From positions 50,077-114,076 of the forward strand of contig JAQTQB010000010.1 in assembly GCA_028712475.1 (NCBI GenBank): a DNA stretch of 64,000 nt, in the 5' to 3' direction. The notes under the pieces were generated by a model. It was not told the origin of the DNA and made no database searches. It worked only from the letters and a program-made list of their open reading frames with translations. Origin of the DNA: Verrucomicrobiales bacterium (GTDB lineage: Bacteria; Verrucomicrobiota; Verrucomicrobiia; Limisphaerales; UBA11358). A program made the position numbers and the translations under genes. Shown piece after piece: positions 2,230-63,903 of this stretch; position 1 is the first letter of the stretch; each line of letters starts with the position of its first letter.

Positions 2230-3181
2230 TTCTCCTCCGGGTTTTTGTGGGGGTGGATTTTTTCGGGGCGGTCACCGGCACGACGCTGGACGCCGCCCAA
2301 CGCACGGGAACGTTGTTGGACACGGCCAGATCCGCCGAAGCGATCGTCTTGCTCATGGTTTGTCCCAAATCATAAATTTTCCGCCAGCGCAACAATTGTT
2401 GCTCCAAGTTTTCCAAAGCGAAAGTGATTTCGCTCCCCTGCCCGGTCGTCGCCACAACCACGCCCGGCTGCGAAACGTCCACGCGCCGCAAGTCCACCAG
2501 CCCCGCCATCGGCGAATGGTCGAACGCGCCGATCAGCGCCAGGGCCGCCTGCACCTGCGGCGACTCGACGCGATGCCCCGGCTGCAATTGATAGACGTTC
2601 AGCCCCGTGATCACCGGCAACTGCTCGGTCATCTGCGCCAGTGGAATCACGCACAGGCGCGGGTCGAGCGGCTGCATGACGTTGCCGTCGGCGTCCACTT
2701 GAAAAACTGAAATGGCGATGCCACCGGCGCCACCCGCAGTCGGCACGTTCACCTGCGCCACCGGGTTGCGCTCGGTCACGCGAACTTTCAACGTGCGCGG
2801 CAGCACACGCTCAATCGAGACCGAATCAATCGTCGAAACCAGTTCCAAGTTGCGCTTCACCGAAGCCAGATCCAGCGCGATGAGATTTGCGCCGATCCGC
2901 ACGCGCGTCCAGCGGCGCAATTGTTCCGGCGCGATCACCCCGTCCGTCTGCACTTCGATGTTCTGGATGGCGAACGTGGAATTTTCATAGACGAATTTAT
3001 CCAGCGCCCACGCGCCCGTGCGCCACAGCAGATAAAGCCCGAACACCGTGCCGAACGTCACGCCCAGCGCGATGGACGCGAGCCGCGTGCGCGTCGCGCG
3101 CACCTGGTCGGAGCGCAGCTTCACGTCGAGCACACGCCCGCGATTCAACCGCCGGTTTTTTGGTTCACGCTTAAACCACAT
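2222..3181 (-). CDS. ftsQ: Cell division protein FtsQ/DivIB-like (bitopic, POTRA)
   Basis: Likely start is MWFKREPKNRR (internal Met of ORF 2222..3256). It has one TM helix (LASIALGVTFGTVFGLYLLW) followed by a POTRA-like region. Position is between ddl and ftsA. Confidence 0.7.
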   Translation of the reverse strand: MWFKREPKNRRLNRGRVLDVKLRSDQVRATRTRLASIALGVTFGTVFGLYLLWRTGAWALDKFVYENSTFAIQNIEVQTDGVIAPEQLRRWTRVRIGANLIALDLASVKRNLELVSTIDSVSIERVLPRTLKVRVTERNPVAQVNVPTAGGAGGIAISVFQVDADGNVMQPLDPRLCVIPLAQMTEQLPVITGLNVYQLQPGHRVESPQVQAALALIGAFDHSPMAGLVDLRRVDVSQPGVVVATTGQGSEITFALENLEQQLLRWRKIYDLGQTMSKTIASADLAVSNNVPVRWAASSVVPVTAPKKSTPTKTRRRNV

Positions 3182-3233
3182 TTGTTCAATTAAAAATTGT
3201 GAATTAAAAATTAAAAATGGCGGAGCGCGGGCT

Positions 3234-4259
3234 TTAGCCCGCTTCAACCCCTGCACCTGCCAGTTTGTTGGAAAAGGCCACGCCAGCCTTGCTCTCGCCT
3301 GTCAAAGCGGCATAAATGCCGCGCTCCGACAATCTCACACTTTTAATTTTTGATTTTTCATCCCGTTTCAGCGCCAGATCAATCATCCGCTGACACAATT
3401 CCGCATAACCCAGCCCCGCCTCCGCCGCCGCCTTTGGCAGCAAACTCGTCTCTGTCATGCCGGGCAGCGTGTTCACTTCGAGAACAACTGGCTCGCCATT
3501 TGAGCAAACCATCACGTCCACGCGCGCATAATCGCGTCCGCCAATCGCGTGAAACGCGCCGAGCGCGGCGTCCTGAATCCGCTTCGTCGCCGCCGCATCA
3601 AAATCTGCCGGGCAAAAATATTCCGTCTCTCCCGCCGTGTATTTGCTCCGCTCGTCATACCGGCCGGACTTGGGACGAACCTCAACGACCGGCAGCGCTT
3701 CGCCCGCCAAAATGCCCACCGTCGTCTCGCGCCCGACGATTCTTTCTTCGACCAGCAGTTGCGAATCGTAGCGGAACGCCTCGCGCAGTGCATTTTTCCA
3801 GTCCGACACGCGCTCCACGAACTGCAGGCCCACGCTCGAACCCTGCCGCACCGGTTTCACCACCAGCGGCGGCTGCCAGCCCATCGGCCACGGCGTTTTG
3901 GCGGATTCGACCACCAGAAATTTCGCCGTCGGAACCCCGGCCTCGATGCACCGCTGTTTCGTCAGCACCTTGTCGAACGCGATGCGGCTCGCCACGGCAT
4001 CGCAGCCGGTGTAAGGCACGCCGAGTTTTTCCAACTGTTGCTGCACCGTGCCGTCCTCGCCGTAGGTCCCGTGCAACGCCAGAAACACCGCGTCCGTGTC
4101 CGGCGGCAAAATCCAGTCCGGCTTTTCCGGATCCAGTTCCACCACCGTGTGGCCGAGCGAACGCAACGCCTTGGCCACCCCCGCGCCGGAATTCAGCGAG
4201 ACTTTCCGCTCGGCGCTGGGGCCGCCGAGCATCACCACAATTTTTAATTTTCCATGCAT
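3234..4259 (-). CDS. ddl: D-alanine--D-alanine ligase
   Basis: N-terminus reads MHGKLKIVVMLGGPSAERKVSLNSG, and the body has ATP-grasp character. I chose the internal Met so the gene abuts the murB stop at 4261. Confidence 0.9.
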   Translation of the reverse strand: MHGKLKIVVMLGGPSAERKVSLNSGAGVAKALRSLGHTVVELDPEKPDWILPPDTDAVFLALHGTYGEDGTVQQQLEKLGVPYTGCDAVASRIAFDKVLTKQRCIEAGVPTAKFLVVESAKTPWPMGWQPPLVVKPVRQGSSVGLQFVERVSDWKNALREAFRYDSQLLVEERIVGRETTVGILAGEALPVVEVRPKSGRYDERSKYTAGETEYFCPADFDAAATKRIQDAALGAFHAIGGRDYARVDVMVCSNGEPVVLEVNTLPGMTETSLLPKAAAEAGLGYAELCQRMIDLALKRDEKSKIKSVRLSERGIYAALTGESKAGVAFSNKLAGAGVEAG

Positions 4260-4260
4260 A

Positions 4261-5211
4261 TTAATCTTCGCCAATAATTTCAACTTCCGTGTGCAGTTCG
4301 ATGCCGCGCGCTTCCTTCGCCCGCGCCTGGAGCAGCGCAATCAATTCCAAAACGTCGCGCGCCGTCGCGGTGCCGCCGTTCACGACGAAATTGCCGTGCT
4401 CCAGCGAGACCATCGCCCCGCCGACATGCGCGCCTTTCAGCCCGATTTCATCAATCAATTTTCCCGCCGGAACCGCCGCCGTGTTTTTGAAAATGCAGCC
4501 GGCGCTCGGCGCGGCGGGCTGCGATTCCCAGCGCTTTTCGCTATATGCCATCATGCGCCGCTCGATCTCCGCGCGCGGCAGCGGCGTGCATTTGAACACC
4601 GCGCCCAGCGCAACGTGCGTTTTCAGCAGCGGGCACGCGCGATATTCCACCGGCACCTCGCCCGCGACGCGTTCGTGGATTTCACCGTCATAATCCATGA
4701 ACCGGAACGACTCGACCGCGCCAAACGTCGCCGCTCCCATCGCGCCCGCGTTCATGCGCAACGCGCCGCCGACGCTGCCGGGAATGCCTTCCAAAAATTC
4801 CACGCCGCTCAAATTGTTCCGTTTGGCTTCGACCGAAACATTCTTCAACTTCGCGCCCGCGCCGCAATGCAGCCGTTCGCCAACGATCTCAATCTTGCTG
4901 AAATGCGGATGCGCCAGACAGATCACCACGCCGCGCACGCCGCCGTCGCGCACGAGCAGATTCGAGCCGCGTCCAAGAATGAAAAATGGCACGTCACGGT
5001 CGCCGCAAAATTTCAGGACGTTCGCCAGATCCGCTTCCGACGCCGGTTCCACGTAAACATCAGCCGGGCCACCGATGCGCATGGTCGTGTGCTTCGCCAG
5101 CGGTTCATCGCGAAGGATCACGGTCGCGCGCAAAACGCGGGCGGCCAGTTCATCGGCAATGTTTTTTTCAATTCGCATCGGGCTTTCCAAAATGTTCGCG
5201 GCCGGCGTCAT
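4261..5211 (-). CDS. murB: UDP-N-acetylenolpyruvoylglucosamine reductase
   Basis: 316 aa. FAD-binding MurB-like sequence (HTTMRIGGPADVYVEP, GRGSNLLV). dcw context. Confidence 0.9.
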   Translation of the reverse strand: MTPAANILESPMRIEKNIADELAARVLRATVILRDEPLAKHTTMRIGGPADVYVEPASEADLANVLKFCGDRDVPFFILGRGSNLLVRDGGVRGVVICLAHPHFSKIEIVGERLHCGAGAKLKNVSVEAKRNNLSGVEFLEGIPGSVGGALRMNAGAMGAATFGAVESFRFMDYDGEIHERVAGEVPVEYRACPLLKTHVALGAVFKCTPLPRAEIERRMMAYSEKRWESQPAAPSAGCIFKNTAAVPAGKLIDEIGLKGAHVGGAMVSLEHGNFVVNGGTATARDVLELIALLQARAKEARGIELHTEVEIIGED

Positions 5212-5214
5212 GGT

Positions 5215-6429
5215 TCAATGCGCGTGTTTGGCCGGACCGTGCGCGTGGCCGCAGCCACAGGTTGATTTACGCGCGGCAACCGCTTCCTGCTGCTGCGCAA
5301 TCGCGGTCAAAATTATTTCCGCGATCTGTTCTGCCGCTGCCGGCGCGTGCCATTGGGTGAGCGCAGATTGCATTGCAACGCGGGTCGAATTGTTCTCAAC
5401 CAATTCGCATAGCAGCGCGGCGACTTTTTCGGGCGTGGAGTTTTTCTGTTCGAGCAGTTTTGCCGCGCCGGTTTTTTCAAACGCCAGCGCGTTTATAAAT
5501 TGATGATTATCCGCCGCCGCCGGATACGGCACGAGCAGCGACGGCAGCCGCATAGCCGCGATTTCCGCGAGCGACGACGCCCCGGCGCGGCTGACAGAAA
5601 CCGTCGCGGCACCGAGCGCCAGATCCATTTCGGCAAGGAACGGTTTGACCACCGCTTCGATTCCCCGCGCGGCATAAGCCTGTTTCACCTTTTCAAAATC
5701 ACTCGTGCCGGTGAGATGGAGCCATTGCCACGCGGAGGCACGGTCACCAAGCGCAGGCAGCGCAGACAAAACCATGTCGTTCAGTCCGCTTGCGCCCTGG
5801 CTGCCGCCCATGACCAGAACGACAGGACGGTTTGGATCAAGGCCGAGGGCGATGCGAAATTCCTTCAGTTTGGACTCGACGGAGTCTCGCCCCACCGGAT
5901 TTTGGTCTGCCGCAAATTGCGGGCGGACGGGAGTGCCGGTGGTCGTGACCTTGCGCGCCTTCAACCGCGAACCGGCATCGGGAAATCCGACGAACGCCCC
6001 GTCCACGAACCGGGATAGAAAACGGTTGGCGCGTCCGGGGATAGTGTTGGATTCGTGCAGGAAAGTTTTCGCGCCGCAGTCCTTGGCGGCGAGAATTGGT
6101 GGCGCGCTGGTGAATCCACCCATCGCCAGAACTGCGTCGGGCTTGCGTTGTTTGAAAAACTTGGACGATGCGCGCCACGATTGCCAGAAGCTGCGGCCGA
6201 ACGAAAAGTAATTGCGGTTTTGCAGCGCGACGGCGGGCAGTGTGAAAATTTCCATGCCACGCGCCGATTTCACGGCTTGTTGATCCACGTCCTTGGGCGA
6301 GATGAGCAGCGCGACGGTGCAGCCGCGTTTCTGGAGCTGTTGGGCGACGGCAAGCCCCGGAAAGAGATGCCCGCCCGTGCCGCCACAGGCGATGGCGACA
6401 AAGGGCGATTTGGCGGCGGATGAACTCAT
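5215..6429 (-). CDS. murG: UDP-N-acetylglucosamine--N-acetylmuramyl-(pentapeptide) pyrophosphoryl-undecaprenol GlcNAc transferase, with a Cys/His-rich C-terminal tail
   Basis: GGTGGHLFPG motif and glycosyltransferase-28 layout. Overlaps the ftsW stop by 4 nt. Confidence 0.9.
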   Translation of the reverse strand: MSSSAAKSPFVAIACGGTGGHLFPGLAVAQQLQKRGCTVALLISPKDVDQQAVKSARGMEIFTLPAVALQNRNYFSFGRSFWQSWRASSKFFKQRKPDAVLAMGGFTSAPPILAAKDCGAKTFLHESNTIPGRANRFLSRFVDGAFVGFPDAGSRLKARKVTTTGTPVRPQFAADQNPVGRDSVESKLKEFRIALGLDPNRPVVLVMGGSQGASGLNDMVLSALPALGDRASAWQWLHLTGTSDFEKVKQAYAARGIEAVVKPFLAEMDLALGAATVSVSRAGASSLAEIAAMRLPSLLVPYPAAADNHQFINALAFEKTGAAKLLEQKNSTPEKVAALLCELVENNSTRVAMQSALTQWHAPAAAEQIAEIILTAIAQQQEAVAARKSTCGCGHAHGPAKHAH

Positions 6430-7583
6430 GTGGCTTTGGCGGCAAACGGATTATCGCCGTGGTCGGCGGCGGATTCGGAAACTTTTTCACGCACGTGCGC
6501 CTGCCGCGCGACGCTGAACAGCAGCCCGATGCATGTCAGCATCGCCAGCAGGTTCGAGCCGCCGTAACTGATGAACGGCAGCGGCAAACCCTTGTTCGGC
6601 AGCGCGCTGGTGACGACACCGATGTTGATGGCGGCTTGCAGGCTGATGAGAAAGGTGATCCCGGATGCGAGCAAAAATCCAAAGGTGTCGCGCGCGTGCA
6701 TCGCGATGTAAATGCCGCAAACGGCCATGACGACGAACGCCACCACGACAAACAGCGTGGCCACCAAGCCAAGTTCCTCGCCGATGTTTGCGAAAATAAA
6801 GTCGGTGTGGATTTCGGGCAGCCAGCCAAATTTCCGCACGCCGTTGCCGAGGCCGACGCCGAACCAGCCGCCGTTGCCGAGGCCGAGCATGGCCTGTTGC
6901 GCCTGCAACGCCGCGCCATTGAGATGATCCTCGGGATGCAGCCACGCGAAGATTCGCCCCATGCGCATCGGGTCGTGCAAAATGGAAACCACCAGCCCCG
7001 CCGCGCCCGCCGCCGCTGGAATCAAAATGTGCTTCCACTGAACCCCGGCGATCAGAAGCATCACCCCGGTGACAGCGGACAACAGGATGGTTGTGCCGCG
7101 GTCAGGTTCAACAAAGATGAGGCCGAGAATCAAACCGGCCATCGCCGCCGGAAATAAAATCCCGCGTTTGAAGGTGTGCATCTGGCGCTGATAACGGTCG
7201 CCATACCACGCGAGCATGATGATGAGCGTGATTTTGCCGAGTTCGGAGGGTTGAAAAGAGAACGGGCCGAACCCGATCCAGCGATGCGCGCCGTGGCTGG
7301 CACGTCCGATGTGCGGCACGAACACCAGCCCCAGCAAGAGCAGCGCAAAAATGAAAACCGGCCAGGCGAATTTTTTCAACAGTTGATAGTTGAGCGCCGT
7401 CGCCGTGACGCAAAAAACGAAACCGACGGCACACCACATGAGCTGCATTATCAGGTCGTGCGCGCCGGTTTCCACATGGGTTTTACGGTTTTCCAGCGCC
7501 CAGCTTGAGCTGTAGAGCATCACCAGACCCAGCGCGAGCAGGGCGGCGGCGCAAAAAGCCAGAGTTGTGACGGCGACTTTCAT
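6426..7583 (-). CDS. ftsW: SEDS-family peptidoglycan polymerase FtsW
   Basis: 385 aa polytopic membrane protein with FtsW/RodA-like sequence (PSELGKITLII, FISYGGSNLL). Confidence 0.9.
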   Translation of the reverse strand: MKVAVTTLAFCAAALLALGLVMLYSSSWALENRKTHVETGAHDLIMQLMWCAVGFVFCVTATALNYQLLKKFAWPVFIFALLLLGLVFVPHIGRASHGAHRWIGFGPFSFQPSELGKITLIIMLAWYGDRYQRQMHTFKRGILFPAAMAGLILGLIFVEPDRGTTILLSAVTGVMLLIAGVQWKHILIPAAAGAAGLVVSILHDPMRMGRIFAWLHPEDHLNGAALQAQQAMLGLGNGGWFGVGLGNGVRKFGWLPEIHTDFIFANIGEELGLVATLFVVVAFVVMAVCGIYIAMHARDTFGFLLASGITFLISLQAAINIGVVTSALPNKGLPLPFISYGGSNLLAMLTCIGLLFSVARQAHVREKVSESAADHGDNPFAAKAT

Positions 7584-16336: not shown

Positions 16337-16470
16337 CGTCAACGAAAATCTTTGGGTAAACGAGGATTTATTCAAAAGTTATTCACAATTTGAATTTGCC
16401 GTGGAAAATGCGCCAAACTTTCCCACGTGACAGCTTGAAACTTTAAAGCTGAAACTTGAAACTCGCCGCC

Positions 16471-27936: not shown

Positions 27937-29466
27937 ATGGCCTTAAAACTGTTCAACACGCTGTCCCGCTCCGTCCAGGAGTTCGCCCCGCTCAATCCCG
28001 CCGGCAAGAAAGTCGGCATGTATTGCTGCGGCCCGACCGTCTATGACTTCGCGCACATCGGCAACTGGCGCACTTTCGTCTTCGCCGACCTTGTCCGCCG
28101 GGTGCTCGAATTCTCCGGCTACGATGTGCAGCACGTCATGAACATCACGGACATCGAGGACAAGATCATCAAACGAGTTAATTCGTTGAAGAGTTCAAGC
28201 GATGAAGCGATAAAGCGGTCGGACGCTCAATCGCTTCAACACTCAATCGCTTCAACACTTCAACCTTTGCGTGATTTCACCGGCAAATTTGAAACCGCCT
28301 TTCTCGACGACTTGAAAGCACTCGGCTGCCGCGAACCGCACGTCAAACCCCGCGCCACGGAATACATCGCCGAAATCATCGCGCTCATCGAAAAGCTCAT
28401 CGCGCGCGGCGTCGCCTACAAGGCGGCGGACGGCTCGGTCTATTTTTCCATCACCAAATACCAAGGTTGCGGCTGCCATTACGGCCAGTTGCTCAAACTC
28501 AATTTCGACGAGATGCGCGCCGGCGAACGCGTTTCCAGCGATGAATACGAGAAGGAATCCGTCGCCGACTTCGCGCTCTGGAAGGCGCGCGTGCCAGACG
28601 ACGGCGATATTTTCTGGCCCAGTCCGTTCGGCGAGGGCCGGCCCGGCTGGCACATCGAGTGCAGCGCCATGAGCATGAAAGTGCTCGGTGAAAGTTTCGA
28701 CCTGCACCTCGGCGGCGAGGATCTGAAATTCCCGCATCATGAGGACGAAATCGCCCAGAGCGAAGGCGCGACCGGCAAGCCGTTCGTCAAATACTGGCTG
28801 CACGGCGCGCATCTGCTGGTCGAGGGCAAGAAGATGAGCAAGTCGCTGGAAAATTATTTCACGCTGCGCGATCTGCTCGCCAAAGGCTTCACCGGCCGCG
28901 AAGTGCGCTATCTGCTGCTCACCGCGCATTACCGCGAGACATTCAATTTCACGCTCGATGGTTTGCACGGCGCGAAGTCGGCACTCGCCCGCATTGACGA
29001 GTGCGTTGGCAAATTGCGCGAGGTTGGAGCGCCGGCCTCCGGCCCGGCACGAACCGCTTCACAACTCGCCGGGTCGGAGACCGGCGTTCCGCTGCTCGCC
29101 AACTTCACCGCCGCGATCTCGGACGACCTGAACATCTCCGCCGCGTGGGGCGCGGTGTTTGAATGGGTGCGCGAAACGAACAAGAAGCTGGCAGAAAATA
29201 CCTTGAGTTCAACGGACGCCGCTGTAAATCTGGCTGCATGGGAGAAAATTGATTCCGTCCTCGGCATCAGCGTGAAAACGGAAACGGAAATTCCCGCTGA
29301 AATTCTGGCGCTGGCTGAAGCCCGAACCGACGCCAAGAAAGCCAAGGACTTCAAGCGCGCCGACGCCATCCGTGATGAATTAAAAGCCAAAGGCTGGGTC
29401 ATTGAAGATTCGCCCAAGGGAATTAAATTAAAAAAGTGTGAGCAAGGGATTATTCATCAGCTTTGA
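27937..29466 (+). CDS. cysS: Cysteine--tRNA ligase (carries an in-frame repeat-derived insertion)
   Basis: HIGN (FAHIGNWRTF) and KMSKS motifs. 509 aa. Confidence 0.93.
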   Translation: MALKLFNTLSRSVQEFAPLNPAGKKVGMYCCGPTVYDFAHIGNWRTFVFADLVRRVLEFSGYDVQHVMNITDIEDKIIKRVNSLKSSSDEAIKRSDAQSLQHSIASTLQPLRDFTGKFETAFLDDLKALGCREPHVKPRATEYIAEIIALIEKLIARGVAYKAADGSVYFSITKYQGCGCHYGQLLKLNFDEMRAGERVSSDEYEKESVADFALWKARVPDDGDIFWPSPFGEGRPGWHIECSAMSMKVLGESFDLHLGGEDLKFPHHEDEIAQSEGATGKPFVKYWLHGAHLLVEGKKMSKSLENYFTLRDLLAKGFTGREVRYLLLTAHYRETFNFTLDGLHGAKSALARIDECVGKLREVGAPASGPARTASQLAGSETGVPLLANFTAAISDDLNISAAWGAVFEWVRETNKKLAENTLSSTDAAVNLAAWEKIDSVLGISVKTETEIPAEILALAEARTDAKKAKDFKRADAIRDELKAKGWVIEDSPKGIKLKKCEQGIIHQL

Positions 29467-30467: not shown

Positions 30468-30471
30468 CCTC

Positions 30472-30565
30472 GTAGCAGCCGACGTGAGGAGGCTCTAATT
30501 TCCCTTGGCATTCTGATGTCGGTTTAAGATGAAGAATTACAGAGCCGACTCACATCGGCTGCTAC
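30472..30565. repeat. GTAGCAGCCGA-type inverted-repeat element between convergent genes (probable bidirectional terminator)
   Basis: The arms GTAGCAGCCGACGTGAGGAGGCTCT (30472-30496) and AGAGCCGACTCACATCGGCTGCTAC (30541-30565) are complementary at 21 of 25 positions. The left arm is identical to 32883-32907 inside aroA. Confidence 0.65.
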
Positions 30566-30574
30566 GGATTTCTT

Positions 30575-31942: not shown

Positions 31943-33454
31943 TCAATCCGCAAATAATTCCTCAACCGCCAATTTTCTTCCAGTTTTCGCGTCACGGATT
32001 TCCGCGCCCAGGCCGTGCGGCGGTTGCGCGGCGAGCTTCTGGAAAAAGTTCGGGAACGTCTTCTTCACGCAGGCGGGATTTTTAATTTTTATGCCGGGAA
32101 CCTTCAATCCCAGAATCGCAAAACACATCGCCATGCGATGGTCGTTGTAGGTCTCAATCTCCGCGCCGTGCAACGACGACGGCCATACCGTCAGCGTGTC
32201 ACCTTTCTCGACTACTTTCGCGCCGCACTTGGTCAACTCCGTCCGCAAAGCGATAACGCGCTCGCATTCCTGGACGCGCAGGCGGCCAAGGTCGGTGAAT
32301 TGATTTGTTTCTACCGAACACGCCAATAAATCCGTTGACGATAACACAATTGCCGTCATGATGCTGTCGCCCAAATCCAGCTTCCGCGAAATAATAGCGG
32401 TCTTAAAAGATTTCTTAACCAGTTTTGGTAGCTCCACGGACAGGTTGCCGCTCTTTTTTGCTTCAAGAATCAAACGGTGAGTTTCGCCGAGCGAAATTAC
32501 TTGAGGGAAATTTTCATCAATTTGCCATCCGGTTTTCGGCCAATTAAGAACTTCTATGTCAAAGTTGCCGTGAACCACATGACCAAGCCGAAATGGTTCT
32601 GGTAGAGATAATTTAAGTTCTGGCAAATTCGGAAAATCTTCGGCCCACGGAGCGATTTGTCCGGCCGCCCAAAAATAACTCCCGCTGCTTGCATCCGGCT
32701 CGATTTGAAAAGTTCCGCCGTTTTTCGGAAACACTTCCATCAATTTTGCAGTCATCGCCACATACGGCGATTCCTCCGCATTCTCGCCAACGATTTCAAT
32801 CTCCCAGCCGCCTTGCCTGGACGAAAGCAACAACGCCGACGCAAACTGTGAGCTATCCTCGATGCTGACTTTGCAATGCTTCGTAGCAGCCGACGTGAGG
32901 AGGCTCTGACTTTCCTTTTCAGTTTGAGCCTCGCTACCTCGGCTGCTACCACCGAAAATCTTCACCGGCAGCCTGTCATTCCCCTTTTCAGATTCGACGC
33001 GATAGCCCAGTTCTCGCAACGCCTGGAACAGCGCGGCCTGCGGACGCTCGTGCATTCGCGGCACGCCGCTCAAACGATACACGCCATCGCCCAGACAAAC
33101 GAACGCCGACAAGAACCGCGCCGCCGTGCCCGCATTGCCCACAAAGAGTTCCAACGGCTTTTCCGCCGTGCCCGCGTTCGGAATTTTCCCGCCAAGACCT
33201 TTGACCGCGATGGTGCGGTTGCAAGGTTCGTCCGGATCATTTTGTTTGCTGACCTCAAACCCGAGTTTTTGCAGACAATCGAACATGATCTCCGTGTCCT
33301 CGCTCCACAGCGCGCCCTTGAGCGTCACTTCGCCATCGGCCAGCGCGGCGAGGATCAGCGCACGGTTCGTGATGCTCTTGGAACCGGGCACGGTGATCTC
33401 CGCGCGCACGGGCTTGTTGAGCGGAACGATTTCGATGAGGTCGGGTAAAGACAT
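31943..33454 (-). CDS. aroA: 3-phosphoshikimate 1-carboxyvinyltransferase (EPSP synthase), with lineage-specific insertions
   Basis: Starts MSLPDLIEIVPLNKPVRAEITVPGSKSITNRALILAAL. Also contains EPDASSGSYF and RVQECER motifs. Confidence 0.9.
   Translation of the reverse strand: MSLPDLIEIVPLNKPVRAEITVPGSKSITNRALILAALADGEVTLKGALWSEDTEIMFDCLQKLGFEVSKQNDPDEPCNRTIAVKGLGGKIPNAGTAEKPLELFVGNAGTAARFLSAFVCLGDGVYRLSGVPRMHERPQAALFQALRELGYRVESEKGNDRLPVKIFGGSSRGSEAQTEKESQSLLTSAATKHCKVSIEDSSQFASALLLSSRQGGWEIEIVGENAEESPYVAMTAKLMEVFPKNGGTFQIEPDASSGSYFWAAGQIAPWAEDFPNLPELKLSLPEPFRLGHVVHGNFDIEVLNWPKTGWQIDENFPQVISLGETHRLILEAKKSGNLSVELPKLVKKSFKTAIISRKLDLGDSIMTAIVLSSTDLLACSVETNQFTDLGRLRVQECERVIALRTELTKCGAKVVEKGDTLTVWPSSLHGAEIETYNDHRMAMCFAILGLKVPGIKIKNPACVKKTFPNFFQKLAAQPPHGLGAEIRDAKTGRKLAVEELFAD
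32883..32949. repeat. GTAGCAGCCGA-type hairpin repeat inserted in-frame inside aroA
   Basis: Arms at 32883-32907 and 32926-32949 are inverted repeats. Positions 32881-32907 are identical (27 nt) to 30470-30496. The element encodes ..SSRGSEAQTEKESQSLLTSAAT... Confidence 0.65.
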
Positions 33455-34484: not shown

Positions 34485-34502
34485 GCCAGTGAGTTTCAAG
34501 TT

Positions 34503-35582
34503 TCAAGTTCCAAGTTTCAAGCTTGTTCCACGCCGTGCGGCTTCGTGGCAGGCGTCTAAAACTTTTTGCGTTTTCAGCGCCCACTGCGGCCAGTCCTCAT
34601 TAAGATTGCCGGAGAAAATCTGGTTTGCAAAATTGCGGAACATGAGGGTGTCCTGTGCCGTCGCGTGACCTTGCCATGCGGGTTCGACACCCGGCGGGCA
34701 TTTCACGCCGGACACCGTGCGGATTTCAGCATCGTTGACCTCGAACGCCGGCTCGTAACTGTCGAGCGCATGGACGAAGCCTGGCACGCGCAGCCAGCCT
34801 TTCTGTCCGCAGACGTGCGCCCATTGCTGCCGGGCGGCGAGAAAGGAACAATAAAACCCCGAGGAAGCGCCGCCGTCATAAATCAGTTCGCCGGTAAATT
34901 CCGTTGGTGCGGACGTGCCGGATTGCAAAAGAATTTTGCCGGTGACTTCGCGCGGCAGTTGCCAGTTCATCGTCCAAAGCGCGAAACGGATGCAATACCA
35001 GCCGAGATCGCCGAGGCAGCCGGCGGGTTCCAGCGCGGCGTTCACGCGGATGTTGTCGCGGGAAAAATTTCCGTCGCCATAAAAACTGAAGGCCGAAACA
35101 ATCCGGCGGATTTCGCCGACGCTCTGGCCGTCGTCCAAAACCTCGCGAAGCTTCGCCATGCGCGGGCTGTGCATGAACATCACGCCGTCCATGAACTGCA
35201 CGCGGTGTTTCGCGCACGCAGAAATCATTTCCTCCAGTTCGGCGGCGCTCACGGCGCACGGTTTTTCGCAAATGATGTGCTTGCCAGCCGCCGCCGCGCG
35301 GAGAACCCATTCCTTGCGGAGGCCGGTCGGAAGCGGAATATAAACCGCGTCCACTTCCGGCGAGGCTATCAATGCTTCATAGCTGCCGAGCGCATCGGGC
35401 AAAATGTCGAAGGAATTTTCATCCTGACATTCGCGAATGAATTCACGGCTTTTATTCACGTCGCGACTGGCGACGGCGGAAACGACGCAGTTGCCGGAAT
35501 TGAAAATCGCCCGCCAGTTTTTCCTGCCGATGCCGGCGGTGCTCAAAAATCCGATGCGCAGTTGTTTCATATCCGGCTTCAA
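34503..35582 (-). CDS. Gfo/Idh/MocA family NAD(P)-dependent oxidoreductase
   Basis: N-terminal Rossmann region IGFLSTAGIGRKNW and the EKP motif (ICEKPCA). Confidence 0.8.
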   Translation of the reverse strand: MKPDMKQLRIGFLSTAGIGRKNWRAIFNSGNCVVSAVASRDVNKSREFIRECQDENSFDILPDALGSYEALIASPEVDAVYIPLPTGLRKEWVLRAAAAGKHIICEKPCAVSAAELEEMISACAKHRVQFMDGVMFMHSPRMAKLREVLDDGQSVGEIRRIVSAFSFYGDGNFSRDNIRVNAALEPAGCLGDLGWYCIRFALWTMNWQLPREVTGKILLQSGTSAPTEFTGELIYDGGASSGFYCSFLAARQQWAHVCGQKGWLRVPGFVHALDSYEPAFEVNDAEIRTVSGVKCPPGVEPAWQGHATAQDTLMFRNFANQIFSGNLNEDWPQWALKTQKVLDACHEAARRGTSLKLGT

Positions 35583-35622
35583 TTGTAGGGGGCAAGGAAT
35601 CCCGGTTCAATTTCCGATGCAG

Positions 35623-36498
35623 TCAAAGTTTCATCGCATCGTCCACAAAGGTGGTGAACCACGGCTCCGGTGCGCAGGAAAACTCCTTCGGCTCGTCACG
35701 CCAGACGAAGCGCACGGAGCGGGCATGGAGGGCGTGGTTTTCAAAAATGAGCCGGGCGCGCTGTTCGTCGGTAAGACGTTGCTGGACGAGGGCGAGATAC
35801 AAATCCTCGTCGCCACCATAAATTTTGTCGCCGACGATGGCGTGGCCGAGATGCGCGAGATGGATGCGAATCTGATGCTTGCGACCGGTGCGCGGCTGGA
35901 CGCGGAGCAAGGAAAACGCGGATGGAGGGTGGAGGATGGAGGATGGATTGGGGCAGCCCACCTCACCCCGACCCTCTCCCCTCATCTGATGGGCCGAGAG
36001 GGATAATGGTTCGCCAGCCTTCTGTGCAATCGGACGCGTAATTCTTCGCTCGACCCAGTATTCGGTCTGGGCGGCGGCACCGTCGGGGCGCACGCAATCT
36101 TTTACGGCGACGACGCTGTATTCGTCTTTTCCGAGCGGCGCGTCAATGATGCCATGATCTTCGCGCACATGGCCGTGGACGATGGCGAGATATTCTTTTT
36201 CAATGGCGCGGCCTTCCAGAATTTTTCCCAGCTCGCCCGCAACGGCGGAATTTTTCGCCACGATAACCACGCCGCTGGTTTCGCGGTCAAGGCGGTTGAC
36301 TAGGTGGGGCGAGGCTACTGACGAGCCGTCGTCTCCAAGCCCGGCTCGCGCGGACGCTCGCCCCACCAAATGCAGCCGCACCCGGCCAATGAGGCTGGAC
36401 ATCTCGCCGCTCTTGGTCGGATGGCAGACGAGGCCGGCGGGTTTGTTGATGACCAGCAGCTCGTCGTCTTCGTGGATGATGTCGAACAGTCTTCCCAT
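35623..36498 (-). CDS. RluA-family pseudouridine synthase (two in-frame repeat-derived insertions)
   Basis: NRLDRETSG catalytic motif, plus TGRKHQIRIHLAHLGHAIVGDKIYG. Confidence 0.85.
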   Translation of the reverse strand: MGRLFDIIHEDDELLVINKPAGLVCHPTKSGEMSSLIGRVRLHLVGRASARAGLGDDGSSVASPHLVNRLDRETSGVVIVAKNSAVAGELGKILEGRAIEKEYLAIVHGHVREDHGIIDAPLGKDEYSVVAVKDCVRPDGAAAQTEYWVERRITRPIAQKAGEPLSLSAHQMRGEGRGEVGCPNPSSILHPPSAFSLLRVQPRTGRKHQIRIHLAHLGHAIVGDKIYGGDEDLYLALVQQRLTDEQRARLIFENHALHARSVRFVWRDEPKEFSCAPEPWFTTFVDDAMKL

Positions 36499-36543
36499 TT
36501 CCGCAACTTGTTTTCGGTTCAGGCTGGCGTATCATTTGCGCCG

Positions 36544-37191
36544 GTGAAAGAGAAATTGAATCGCTGGCTGCCGTGGGTTTTCGTGGTGCTGTTCGCAGTG
36601 TCGCGGATTCCCAACCTGCTGCCGTCGAATTTCAGCATGGCCTACGCGTTCGCGTTTTGTGCGGGCGTTTATTTTCCCAGAAAAAATTCATGGTGGCTGC
36701 CGCTGGCGGTATTGGTCGCGACCGACATCAGCTTGAATGTTTATTATGCGTCGCACGGCATTGAAGTTTGGGATTCGGCCAATCTGGCGAACCTGGCGTT
36801 CAACTACGCCGCCTACGCCGTCTTGATTTTAATTGGCCGCCGGTTCAAGCCGCAATCGTCCTTCGCCTCGCTGCTCGGCGGCGGAATTTTTGGCGCGATC
36901 TTGTTTTACCTCATCACGAACACAGCGTCGTGGTTCTTCAATCCGTTTCAAAATCCCGAATACACGAAAACCCTTTCCGGCTGGCTGCTCGCGCTGACCA
37001 AGGGCGTCGGCGGTTATCCTTCAACTTGGGAATTTTTCCGCAACACGCTTTTGAGCGGCGGCATCTTCACCGCGCTGTTCGTCGCGGCGGCAAAACTGAC
37101 CGCACCCGCCGAATCGCCGGCTGACAAAAAGGCCGGCGAGCGCGACGAGGAAGCCGAAACCGAAGAAAAACCGGGGGAGACCAGCGCATGA
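36544..37191 (+). CDS. Hypothetical polytopic membrane protein with an acidic C-terminal tail
   Basis: GTG at 36544, in frame within ORF 36370..37191 and chosen to avoid overlapping rluA. About 5-6 TM helices. The tail reads ..ERDEEAETEEKPGETSA. Confidence 0.5.
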   Translation: MKEKLNRWLPWVFVVLFAVSRIPNLLPSNFSMAYAFAFCAGVYFPRKNSWWLPLAVLVATDISLNVYYASHGIEVWDSANLANLAFNYAAYAVLILIGRRFKPQSSFASLLGGGIFGAILFYLITNTASWFFNPFQNPEYTKTLSGWLLALTKGVGGYPSTWEFFRNTLLSGGIFTALFVAAAKLTAPAESPADKKAGERDEEAETEEKPGETSA

Positions 37192-37649
37192 AAATCGGCG
37201 TCATCTCCGACACCCACGGGTTTTTAGACCCGCACGTTCAACAGATTTTCGCTGGCGTTGACCACATCCTCCACGCGGGCGACGTGGGCGATGCGTTCAT
37301 TGCGTTTGAACTCGAGCAAATCGCGCCGGTCACCGTCGTGCTGGGCAACACGGATCTGGGGCTGACGTTCAAGCTGACCGAGGTGGTTGAACTGGGCGCG
37401 CGGAAATTTCTCGTGCAGCACATCGTCCATCCGCCGGCACCCGACGACAAACTCAAAAGCCGGCTCGTGCGTGAACGACCGGACGTGGTCGTGTTCGGGC
37501 ACACGCACAAGCGGTTTGCCGAAACTCTGGGCGGGATTTTATTTTTCAATCCCGGCTATTCCGGCAAACCGAAGCCCGGCACGGAAAGGAGCCTGGCTAT
37601 TTTCCATTGCAAAGAAAAAGAGATCCGGCATGAATTTATTCCGCTGTGA
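37188..37649 (+). CDS. YfcE/MJ0936-type metallophosphoesterase
   Basis: ISDTHG, HAGD, GNTD and GHTH motifs in the canonical order. ATGA overlap with the upstream gene. Confidence 0.8.
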   Translation: MKIGVISDTHGFLDPHVQQIFAGVDHILHAGDVGDAFIAFELEQIAPVTVVLGNTDLGLTFKLTEVVELGARKFLVQHIVHPPAPDDKLKSRLVRERPDVVVFGHTHKRFAETLGGILFFNPGYSGKPKPGTERSLAIFHCKEKEIRHEFIPL

Positions 37650-37900
37650 ATTTGAACCACGGATGGACGCGGATGAAGCAGGAAAGTCGCGAAGCGACGC
37701 CGGAGATTAGCCCGGCACAAGGTGCCGGGTTTCCGACAAACACCGGAATCCGTCCCGACGGGACGGTGGAATCTGTCGTCCCTTCAGGACGAAATTTCTC
37801 TGGTTCATTGATACCAGACACTGTGTGTCTGGCTAATTTCCACCGTCGCTTTGCGACAAAAGACAGGGACTCCCTTGGCTGATCCAGCCACGAAAAAATC
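37650..37900. repeat. Repeat-rich spacer: a string of short hairpins related to the other intergenic repeat families
   Basis: CCACGGATGG/ACGCGGATGA decamers (37657-37676), followed by hairpins GTCGCGAAGCGAC, CCCGGCACAAGGTGCCGGG, GTCCCGACGGGAC, CCAGACACTGTGTGTCTGG and GTCGCTTTGCGAC. Confidence 0.5.
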
Positions 37901-48922: not shown

Positions 48923-50329
48923 TTATTCCGACGGGGCGGGCAGTCCGAGATACCCATAGAACGTGTTTAATACGGGCGCGGGCATGAAGATATCAAAGAG
49001 CAGTTTCACGTTGAGGACAATTATAATCGCGGCGATGGTCCAGCCGAGGATCTTGATCCAGACCGGATTCACAAACTCGCCCATCTTGGCTTTTTCGCCG
49101 GTAAAGCGCATCAGTGGCCAGATGGCAAAGCCTAGCTGCATGGACAATACCACCTGGCTGGCGATCAGCAGATCCGTGGTTTTGCTTTCGCCAAACCAGC
49201 CAATCACAACAACAGCCGGAATGACCGCAATAAGCCGCGTGATCAGCCGGCGCAGCCACGGGCGCAGCCGGATGTTGATGAACCCTTCCATTACGATCTG
49301 CCCGGCCAGCGTGCCGGTCAGCGTGGCGTTTTGTCCCGACGCCAGCAGCGCCACGGCAAACAGGATGCTCGCCACCCCGACACCCAGCAGCGGGCTTAAC
49401 AACTGGTAGGCATCCTGGATGGACGCCACGTCCTGGTGACCGGACCAGTGAAATGCCGACGCGGCCAGAATGAGAATGGCACCGTTGATGAACAGCGCGA
49501 ACATCAACGCCACCGTCGAATCAATCGTGGCGAACTTGATGGCCTCGCGTTTTCCGACGGGGTTCTGCTCGTATTTGCGTGTCTGGACAATCGATGAGTG
49601 CAGGTAAAGATTGTGCGGCATGACCGTCGCGCCGATGATGCCGATGCTGACGTAGAGCATGCTCTGGTTCGTGATGATCTGCGAACTGGGAATGAAGCCC
49701 AGCAGGATGCCGGCGATTCCGGGTTTGGAAAAAAACAGCTCGGCGGCAAAACAACCACCGATGGTCACAATCAGCGTTATCACCAAAGCTTCGATGTAAC
49801 GAAAGCCTTTGTTCTGCAAATAAAGCACAGCCAAAACGTCCAGCACGGTGATGACACAACCCCACATCAGCGGAATCCCAAAGAGCAGTTGCAGCGCGAT
49901 GGCCGAGCCGACGACTTCGGCCAGATCGCACGCCGCGATGGCGATCTCACAAAGAAACCAGAGAAACCAGACGGTCGGCGTGGAGTAATGATCGCGGCAC
50001 GCCTGCGCCAGATCGCGGCCGGTAGCGATGCCCAGCTTGATGCACAAGTGCTGAAGCAGAATCGCCATCAGGTTGGAAATCATGATGACGGCCAGCAACG
50101 TGTAGCCAAATTGCGCGCCGCCCGCGAGGTCGGTGGCCCAGTTGCCCGGATCCATGTAACCGACGGCCACAAGAAAACCGGGGCCGGAAAACGCCAGCAA
50201 CTTCCGCCAGAAGGAAGCGTTCGCCGGCACGAGCACGCTGCGGTGGACTTCCACCAGGGAGACTTGTCCCGCCGGCTTGCGCCAGGCGAATTTTGGGTTT
50301 GGTTCAACAGGAGGTTCGGATTGAGCCAT
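48923..50329 (-). CDS. mntH: Nramp-family divalent metal (Mn2+/Fe2+):H+ symporter
   Basis: 468 aa. [14 protein letters not shown] signature and 11-12 TM helices. Confidence 0.92.
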
Positions 50330-63443: not shown

Positions 63444-63612
63444 TTTTCTTAAATCTTATTTCTTTGGCGGCGCATCAACGCGCTGATTGAACCAAAGGGC
63501 GGAAGAAAATATCAGTTGCCGCCCGTCCGTCAATAACTGATTTCTGGAATTTTAGTCCACCAAACGAGGCAAGGCCAGCCTGTCAAGACGAGGACTGACC
63601 CCTTGTTGAGGA

Positions 63613-63903
63613 TCGTCCGGGTGGGGGGGCGAGTTTTTGAGTTTGAGCGGGCTGACGCCGCGCTGCTACGAGAGGGTGGCATCAAGCGTGAGCTTGATCT
63701 TTATTCTTCCGAAATGGGGAGCGTCCGGGTGGGGCGCGAGTTTTTGAGTTTGAGCGGGCGCACGCCGCGCTGCTACGCCGTATTTCGTAGCATCAAGCGT
63801 GAGCTTGATCATTATTCCGGATTTGGGGTGTCGTGGGTTGGCGAATGTTTTTTTGAGTTAGAGCGGGCGCCCGCCCGCTGCTACGGACGTTTTTTACGGA
63901 CGG
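63613..63903. repeat. Tandem repeat, about 108-bp unit, 2 full copies plus 1 degenerate copy, each with internal hairpins
   Basis: CGTCCGGGTGGGG occurs at 63614 and 63722, with a degenerate GTCGTGGGTTGG at 63830. Each unit contains GAGCGGGC..GCTGCTACG. The first two units also contain the hairpin ATCAAGCGTGAGCTTGAT. Confidence 0.7.

Follow-up and report, generated by a model that had tools for sequence, protein, structure and literature searches.

The gene for an RluA-family pseudouridine synthase in a metagenome-assembled genome (MAG) of a Verrucomicrobiales bacterium carries two separate repeat-like segments within its reading frame, and we asked what these segments are and how they came to lie in an apparently intact enzyme gene. 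The stretch that we analyzed, called the window below, is the 64,000 nt between positions 50,077 and 114,076 of contig JAQTQB010000010.1 (GenBank assembly GCA_028712475.1); the organism is a soil or freshwater Verrucomicrobium. Our answer, which taken as a whole we consider very probable, is that the gene encodes a functional RluA-family pseudouridine synthase in which genomic repeats have become fixed in two loops. One loop (insertion B) holds a member of a REPIN-like family, REPINs being hairpin-forming inverted doublets of repetitive extragenic palindromic (REP) units, and the other (insertion A) holds a second hairpin repeat together with a heptamer array.

The initial annotation of this DNA had described an RluA-family gene with two in-frame segments, and the description holds: a single 291-aa open reading frame (ORF) runs open across both insertions and matches PF00849 (PseudoU_synth_2) with an E-value of 3.4e-31 and 109 bits. 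The marks of an RluA-family pseudouridine synthase, namely the catalytic aspartate in xRLD and the GRxHQIR motif, are both present in the product, and the translated peptides of the insertions and the adjoining NRLDRETSG and GRKHQIR motifs read as had been reported. Across 118 orthologues, residues N68, R69, L70, D71, R72, E73 and G76 are invariant, and those of GRKHQIR are invariant or nearly so. The TIGR00005 model scores 178 bits, below its cutoff of 192.7, and its match falls into two pieces because insertion A splits it. The protein is 100% identical to P0001, labeled "MAG Verrucomicrobiales bacterium", and an independent Logan assembly (run SRR22315508) includes a 12-kb contig whose RluA product is the identical protein. 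The gene order DUF6580 - RluA - GFO_IDH_MocA is preserved in orthologues.

Comparison with distant relatives, which had been suggested as a check, favors insertion at both sites, since E. coli RluD and most orthologues of 45-65% identity lack both segments. Aligned with the host protein, E. coli RluD shows a 10-aa gap at site B and lacks about 39 residues at site A, where host residues 150-195 have no counterpart. We used the metagenome orthologues at 45-65% identity, which are mostly insertion-free among the matches listed, as a reference for the empty sites. In most of these more distant orthologues, the interval from KPAGLVCHP to NRLDR is 26 aa vs. 40 in the window, and that from NRLDR to GRKHQ is 97 aa vs. 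132, so that insertion B adds 14 aa and insertion A adds 35 aa. At site B this is a net gain of 42 nt over an ancestral loop G-N-S-A-Q-P; the empty site reads CAT CTG GGN AAT NCN GCG CAG CCG CAY in DNA, or H-L-G-N-S/A-A-Q-P-H, and even some close relatives are empty there, for instance P0007 (RLHL-GNSAAP-HLV). The alignments indicate that both segments are derived insertions that distant orthologues do not have.

Insertion B has the form GGTGGGGCGAGCGTCCnCGCGAGCC…GGCTCGTCAGTAGCCTCGCCCCACC. The word GGTGGGGCGAG at 36303-36313 is followed, after 43 nt, by its exact reverse complement (36357-36367), in agreement with the coordinates first given for this inverted repeat, and the repeat extends to 26-nt arms with 77% complementarity. 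The folding energy of the element as single-stranded DNA is -22.2 to -22.5 kcal/mol (relative to shuffles, z = -2.9 to -3.6), with 11 perfect base pairs and 7 inner ones, and GTGG stands at both of its termini (G-GTGG-GGCGAG). By our own figure, about one perfect 11-bp inverted repeat with a spacing of up to 60 nt is expected by chance per 64 kb; the inverted repeat is significant because it belongs to a family, and not by itself. The parts of the element and the other features discussed are collected in Table 1.

Table 1. Positions of the host gene, its two insertions and related elements in the window.
Feature	Position	Strand	Basis or remark
RluA-family pseudouridine synthase, host gene	35623..36498	-	291 aa, no S4 domain, intact ORF
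Catalytic motif NRLDRETSG (Asp71)	36271..36297	-	Translation; directly downstream of insertion B
Insertion B, 65-nt palindromic element read as a REP dimer (REPIN-like), translated as VGRASARAGLGDDGSSVASPH	36303..36367	-	Inverted repeat, fold, family alignment
Alpha REP unit GGTGGGGCGAGCGTCCGCGCGAGCCG (GTGG head)	36342..36367	-	Contains the 21-nt search pattern GTRGGGCGAGCGTCCNCGCGA
Spacer (loop) between REP units, 13 nt	36329..36341	-	Family spacer 0 to ~45 nt
Beta REP unit GGTGGGGCGAGGCTACTGACGAGCCG	36303..36328	+	Read in coding sense, the right arm is its reverse complement, GGCTCGTCAGTAGCCTCGCCCCACC
Insertion A, composite (..PIAQKAGEPLSLSAHQMRGEGRGEVGCPNPSSILHPPSA..)	35917..36030	-	35 aa above minimal orthologues
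Module A1, hairpin repeat CCCTCTCggcccatcagatgagGGGAGAGGGTCGGGGTGAGGTGG, translated as SLSAHQMRGEGRGEVG	35958..36002	-	Inverted repeat
Module A2, (GGATGGA)x4 on + strand, translated as PSSILHPPS	35920..35947	-	Tandem Repeats Finder (TRF)
murG with single REP unit GGTGGGGCGAGACTCCGTCGAGTCC (coding strand), reads VGRDSVES	gene 5215-6429, unit 5872-5896	-	Related to insertion-B family
cysS with in-frame palindrome, peptide GAPASGPARTASQLAGSETGVP	gene 27937-29466, arms 29026-29048 / 29068-29090	+	23-nt arms, 87% complementarity

To place insertion B in a family we scanned 185,579 species-representative genomes (596 Gb) for its 21-nt core, GTRGGGCGAGCGTCCNCGCGA, which turned up in at least 120 stretches vs. 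approximately 2 expected by chance in our own arithmetic for 596 Gb. Nearly all of these stretches, among the matches listed, belong to Verrucomicrobiota MAGs (Limisphaerales, subdivision 3, Verrucomicrobiia), and several core loci per MAG are common in these related genomes, as in MFD05379.bin.3.52, Umea2_bin-2232 and 336R_metabinner_137. The aligned copies give a consensus left arm GGTGGGGCGAGCGTCCyCGCGAGCC, a spacer of 0-45 nt, and a right arm that begins with GGCTCG, continues with either CGrGGACG or TCAGTAGC, and ends with CTCGCCCCACC. The right arm in the window is of the second kind and is letter-identical to those in loci L097, L124, L128, L134, L140, L151 and L156. Dimers made up 48 of the 129 sampled elements and ranged from 49 to 88 nt; alpha-beta was the commonest type (22 of the 48), and the window copy is a standard alpha-beta dimer. 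A few copies (L129, L141, L143, L155) have GTAG in place of GTGG, and a related unit, GTAGGGCGAGACTCCGTCGAGCC, is found in tandem in L027 and as a single copy in the murG gene of the window. The flanks of about 90 aligned copies showed no consistent direct target-site duplication or consensus target. By these sequence comparisons insertion B belongs, as a REPIN-like inverted dimer, to a REP family with GTGG heads that abounds in Limisphaerales and subdivision-3 Verrucomicrobiota.

Two further observations concern the family search. A number of repeat-bearing contigs are labeled Bifidobacteriaceae or Bifidobacterium (mostly "binchicken" co-assemblies), Granulicella, Sulfotelmatobacter, Acidiferrales or Sumerlaeaceae (L103, L108, L116, L127, L136, L141, L148, L160, L161, L164, L173, L187 and L189; also L107, L172, L175, L184 and L186), and these are likely mislabeled or contaminated bins. 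An identity in Rfam was also considered for the region 35000-37200 and set aside, as only two sub-threshold chance matches (fiv_FSE and mir-634) were returned.

REPs and REPINs are described as being mobilized by a REP-associated tyrosine transposase (RAYT, or TnpA-REP) (Bertels and Rainey 2011, PMC3116915; PMC3733652). A tblastn search with three RAYTs, from E. coli, O. terrae and S. maltophilia, gave no match. Widening the query to 25 Verrucomicrobial proteins homologous to Oter_2468, a RAYT of O. terrae, picked out L089, L167 and L040. In L089, alpha units at 2669(+) and 3316(+) bracket a 168-aa ORF (2752-3258), and a third unit follows at 3459(-); the homologous ORF of L167 (approximately 937-1539) is likewise bracketed by alpha units, here inverted, with heads at 897(+) and 1483(-). 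The two proteins are 69% identical, carry the HUH motif LMPDHLH and the sequence Y-x-QENPxRKGLV-x4-DWPF, and align with the Verrucomicrobial RAYTs at an hhalign probability of 97.9% (E 5.8e-13); the top PDB match is 4ER8, "TnpArep" (E 8.6e-7). By sequence context, the insertion-B family is associated with a RAYT-type gene in two related genomes. A RAYT gene flanked by REPs is the "REPtron" arrangement of REP-RAYT systems (PMC3733652; PMC3116915).

Within the RAYT-like gene of L167 there is a REP unit read in frame as RLAGTPAPP (approximately 1253-1280); it is absent from the L089 homologue of this gene, and the called C-terminus of the L167 product runs into the flanking REP. Opitutus-type RAYT homologues (L207-L211) were also considered as partners and rejected, their flanks being other GTAG REP families and not the insertion-B family; the RAYT of L210, for example, is flanked by a different GTAG REP, GTAGGGTCGGCGCTTGCGCCGACC. 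Elsewhere in L210, a unit of the same general form, GTAGGGCGAGTCGTCCCGACGAGCC, lies inside a RecD2-like helicase gene (619-2970) at approximately 1595 (-).

Insertion A had been presented as one element, and here the initial annotation has to be corrected, because the segment consists of two unrelated modules, the hairpin A1 and the heptamer array A2. The individual observations stand: the hairpin CCCTCTC (35972-35978) and GAGAGGG (35996-36002) lies where it was reported, and the GGATGGA words form a genuine heptamer array of 4.0 copies with 90% matches by TRF. The hairpin alone folds no better than shuffles (z = -0.3). The A1 repeat has the form CCCTCTC…GGGAGAGGGyCGGGGTGAGG, or in module terms CCCTCTC-loop-GGGAGAGGG-TCGGGGTGAGGTGG. 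Within the 1.59 Mb of related DNA that we fetched, we counted 21 occurrences of its core, GAGAGGG-n(1-3)-GGGGWGAGG, spread over 17 loci; more than a dozen of these occurrences lie outside RluA orthologues. Had the repeat cores been unique to this gene, insertion would be the less attractive; the B core was found at 120 or more places in unrelated contexts and the A1 core at more than 12 non-RluA places, which favors insertion. Insertion A is made up of a second dispersed hairpin repeat (CCCTCTCC-loop-GGGAGAGGG-yCGGGGTGAGG) plus a heptamer microsatellite.

When the DNA of four syntenic orthologues is aligned, the modules at both sites prove to be either cleanly present or cleanly absent. A1 is present in all four and A2 is absent from P0004, so that A2 is a separate and later event. 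In L206, site B holds an A1-type hairpin followed by the same heptamer as A2, and in orthologues the peptide PSSILHPPS is preceded by several different modules. Phase variation by the heptamer array was considered and rejected, as the array is of equal length in all three orthologues that carry it. The A1-type repeat is also read in frame elsewhere: the EPSP synthase gene (aroA) of L085 (6625-8187) has an element at 7287-7345 that is an inverted pair of the GGGAGAGGG-CCGGGGTGAGG repeat (..NERGEGRGEGHSIKTASSPQPSPPLGEEREK..). The annotated N-terminus of this aroA passes through an upstream IRVYPWLK-type repeat, and its called start is therefore probably too early.

A structure model had been proposed as a further check, and the AlphaFold2 model that we obtained from the 118-sequence alignment (mean pLDDT 71, pTM 0.71) places both insertions in coil between secondary-structure elements. 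The predicted fold is of the RluA/RluC/RluD type, with TMt of 0.65-0.70 to 2I82 and 1XPI. Insertion A (approximately residues 156-192) is modeled as coil, has pLDDT values below 50 and is flanked by strands 144-155 and 193-202. Insertion B sets in where helix 36-51 ends and stays coil up to residue 64, immediately ahead of the catalytic strand. Low model confidence is confined to insertion A and does not extend to insertion B. The modeled positions fit what is expected of loop insertions.

Copies of the insertion-B family lie within other genes as well. Of 129 sampled copies, 30 (23%) were central in stop-free stretches of at least 200 aa, as compared with 50% for 60-nt windows drawn at random from these loci, and the family is therefore about two-fold depleted in genes but not excluded from them. 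The first 80 loci have 24 central copies; from these we took 10 ORFs and examined them with Pfam, and in nine of the 10 there were Pfam domains on both sides of the element or spanning it. These nine genes encode a XerC-like integrase, HflX, MutS, PheT, LeuRS, MoeA, a class-III aminotransferase, PdxJ and an alpha-2-macroglobulin, and the element is read in several frames and in both orientations (VGRASSRAG.., GGASVPASR.., ..AREDARPT, ..GSRGRSPH, ..LAGTLAPP). Splicing or bypass of the inserts was set aside, because nine of the 10 tested elements lie between or within domains of one continuous frame, as expected if they are translated.

Two genes of the window also carry in-frame elements (Table 1). 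The REP unit of murG falls in the stretch that links the N-terminal to the C-terminal Glyco_transf_28 domain, and the palindrome of cysS amounts to 14 aa extra relative to E. coli CysRS. Residues 88-123 or so of the cysS product include a further stretch of approximately 23 aa with no counterpart in E. coli CysRS. Outside the window, an alcohol dehydrogenase gene, which adjoins the RluA gene in L002 and L082, contains in-frame alpha-derived sequence (V/IGGGASV..) at the same site in L002 (2609-2631), L082 (4896-4906) and L154 (7914-7940). The full 21-nt core is present in L002, where a 23-nt exact match represents a single alpha unit, and in L154, and L082 has only the GTGGGGCGAGC head; this insert looks old and vertically inherited. 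The L082 dehydrogenase (4682-5860) has two further low-complexity in-frame segments of other repeat types (SEIRNQKLEIRNQ.. and AEVGSRRSEVGGRKSEIGSQKSDL..).

The two RluA loops themselves are occupied very differently from one relative to the next. Among 120 orthologues of 60-82% identity, total lengths range from 246 to 368 aa, and the only internal places at which length varies are sites A and B (11-80 aa and 4-68 aa, respectively). Classification by regular expressions gave nine repeat-peptide families at site B and 11 at site A, among them the REP dimer, the GEGRGE hairpin, the PSSILHPPS and STLNSQPST heptamers, SRRESA..LTFAAT, FSREGRE.., KTENLKLET, FVTPKSDEGG, GAHGVTRPT, GAPASG..PEAGAP, RPRPR..GRERGRG and others. 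The four syntenic orthologues, with flanks 80-94% identical, have three different occupants. By crude parsimony on a neighbor-joining (NJ) tree of the 120 taxa, the first occupant of site B changed at least 59 times vs. approximately 78 for shuffled labels; this tree, built on 230 columns, is poorly resolved, so that 59 is an overestimate and shows only that turnover is high. Several of the families that occupy the RluA loops are apparently also intergenic in the window. Copies that translate as SRCESAL/LLTSAAT, LKLET or IRVHPWF, families that fill the two loops in other orthologues, lie at 30471-30566, 32882-32899, 16449-16463, 34492-34506 and 37657-37674.

Several observations weigh against the explanation that we favor. 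Insertion B is not a clean 65-nt insertion, in that the site has become 42 nt longer on balance and has lost the GNSAQ codons of the ancestral loop. A lone alpha unit has, in our reading, no clear stem-loop, and only the dimer folds; by eye the unit offers a stem of at most 5 bp (GCGAG/CTCGC) where its variable position is T, and the window copy, with G, offers none. Self-comparison of the 64-kb window found no second full copy of either insertion, the window holding one insertion-B-type dimer and the single related unit of murG. With either query set, tblastn detected no RAYT in the window, and Pfam hmmscan was blind to the RAYT-like ORFs of the related genomes at E-values up to 0.01. Finally, in the fetched DNA the nucleotide sequence of A2 was met in RluA orthologues only, and for this module an origin by replication slippage may apply. 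That the GGATGGA array, and perhaps the low-complexity peptide near it, arose in place by slippage or local duplication is a possibility that we regard as rather doubtful. It would suit a 7-nt tandem array of 4.0 copies that is restricted to these genes and, judging from P0004, was added separately after A1; however, the same heptamer and the same PSSILHPPS peptide appear at site B of other orthologues, and the heptamer follows several different upstream modules, which is not easily obtained by repeated slippage from unrelated sequence. We also asked whether the two sites are true integration hot spots, at which resident REP heads and hairpins serve as substrates for further insertion or replacement, and are not merely tolerant. 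The confinement of length variation to two sites with many unrelated families at each, the three occupants among four syntenic orthologues, and the count of occupant changes, which lies below that of shuffled labels, could be so understood, as could nested occupants such as that of L206, whose A1 hairpin at site B is broken by FVTPKSDEGG before the heptamer, and the end of the empty site (..CAGCCSCAY), which partly resembles the REP end CTCGCCCCAC. Nevertheless, selection alone would give the same picture if insertions were frequent everywhere and only these loops tolerated them; the NJ tree inflates the number of changes, the family copies lack a target-site duplication or consensus target, and several occupant families are heptamer arrays and not REPs. 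On balance hot spots seem unlikely, and it is with the same reserve that we mention the corollary that at least 11 unrelated small-repeat families have landed in, or replaced one another at, these loops dozens of times within one family-level clade, each resident repeat attracting the next. If true, the sites would be a natural record of how REPINs and RAYTs choose their targets, and of an essential-type enzyme undergoing rapid "loop swapping".

It is much less probable still that the insertions are adaptive, whether as selected RNA-binding or interaction loops near the catalytic aspartate or as mRNA hairpins that control expression. Insertion B does lie directly upstream of the catalytic NRLD motif and its hairpin is stable, and the inserts common to the window and to L082 and L085 are about as conserved (80-92%) as the core of the gene. 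Yet the occupants are unrelated in sequence and length among close orthologues, some of which have none; the same elements are present in many unrelated genes and in intergenic DNA; and insertion A is modeled with low confidence and no regular structure. We give the least credence of all, and very little, to an artefact, in which repeats were mis-assembled or a dead gene has a fortuitously open frame. The source is a MAG, and repeats are a classical cause of mis-assembly, but the Logan assembly yields the identical protein, dozens of orthologues from independent metagenomes have insertions in frame at these two sites, the residues of the catalytic motif and the core are invariant, and nine of 10 elements in other genes have domains on both sides or spanning them. 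Fixation of genomic repeats in two loops of a working enzyme remains the explanation that we prefer. In the mechanism that we infer, a RAYT of the Y1 HUH type would mobilize the insertion-B family. Because the elements are G+C-rich and free of stops in most frames, copies that fall in frame in a tolerant loop would be translated as a disordered, presumably neutral, extra loop and survive purifying selection; copies landing elsewhere in the gene would be lost.

One further claim of the initial annotation concerned a likeness between insertion B and the tandem repeat near 63.6 kb. A GGTGGGG..CGAG-like word is present there, as stated, but only with one mismatch (63623 and 63728), and the kinship is weak; the 11-mer of insertion B has five matches in the window at up to one mismatch vs. 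1.58 expected, and 3 of 100 shuffles reach five. The array itself (63610-63885) repeats every 107 nt, for 2.5 copies, and consists in our reading of GTAG-headed hairpin units (..GCTGCTAC / GTAGCATCAAGCGTGAGCTTGATC). By sequence it would be a REP cluster, similar to a bacterial interspersed mosaic element (BIME), of families other than that of insertion B.

How does the insertion-B family relate to systems already known? The closest comparison is with REP/REPIN-RAYT systems. Di Nocera et al. (2013, PMC3733652) distinguished a GTAG and a CGTC superfamily of REPs; according to their survey, most GTAG-20 elements of O. terrae have GTGG heads, intragenic GTAG/CGTC REPs are most numerous in Opitutus terrae, itself a Verrucomicrobium, and in R. 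conorii, where they are Rickettsia palindromic elements (RPE), a REP dimer contributes the peptide VGRASARH..ASRAEARP to UvrA of Thioalkalivibrio, and REPs are noted in tRNA pseudouridine synthase genes of other species. The insertion-B unit is likewise short and G+C-rich, with a GTAG-type head in the GTGG variant of O. terrae GTAG-20 as the survey gives it. Its units form inverted dimers with a long hairpin, in many dispersed copies in related genomes, as in REPINs, and they flank a Y1 HUH RAYT-like gene (L089, L167) as in REP-RAYT systems, a link that was seen in related genomes. Copies in genes encode approximately 8 aa (single units) or 16-30 aa (dimers), like the intragenic REPs that the survey describes in O. 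terrae. By our reading, a lone insertion-B unit, unlike classical REPs, has no clear stem-loop, and the copies are less strictly extragenic, some 23% of them lying in long ORFs (random positions, about 50%). The sequence GGTGGGGCGAG-n8-CGAGCC and the host clade, Limisphaerales and subdivision 3, set the family apart from those that we found listed in the 2013 survey.

RPEs (Ogata et al. 2000/2002, as cited in PMC3733652) offer the second comparison. Here too, palindromic repeats lie in frame in conserved housekeeping-type genes that are left intact, in several genes per genome, with the inserted peptide segment between secondary-structure elements, and such RPE-like insertion into intact genes is seen in RluA, in nine of the 10 other genes examined, in murG and in cysS. 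The insertion-B elements differ in phylum and probably in sequence, in having an identifiable RAYT, in the use of the same two loops by many repeat families, and in their length of 49-88 nt; RPE-1 is roughly 100-150 nt. The kinship is one of the same way of working, and not of membership in an RPE family. Insertion B can also be compared with MITEs (miniature transposable elements that have inverted repeats) within genes, such as the enterobacterial RU elements (PMC2759123; reviewed in PMC10969869), since it is small and non-autonomous, has terminal inverted repeats (11 bp perfect) and is readable as part of an ORF. Unlike a MITE, its family shows no target-site duplication in about 90 copies and is tied to a Y1 transposase. 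We know of no DDE-type parent insertion sequence for these elements.

The mechanism, then, is already known, because translated REP/REPIN insertions of the RPE-like kind have been published for Rickettsia and Opitutus (PMC3733652). As far as we found, the repeat family and its host clade are undescribed, and the recurrent use of two loops is the only unusual feature of the case. A REPIN-RAYT system litters both coding and intergenic DNA in this clade, and as a result the lengths of housekeeping proteins vary by tens of residues between close relatives. This has consequences for gene calling, for the scoring of orthology, as illustrated by the TIGR00005 score that falls below its cutoff here, and for quality checks on MAGs. 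The locus is a well-populated case of protein tolerance to translated selfish DNA, and the series of orthologues at its two loops could serve the study of REPIN integration sites.

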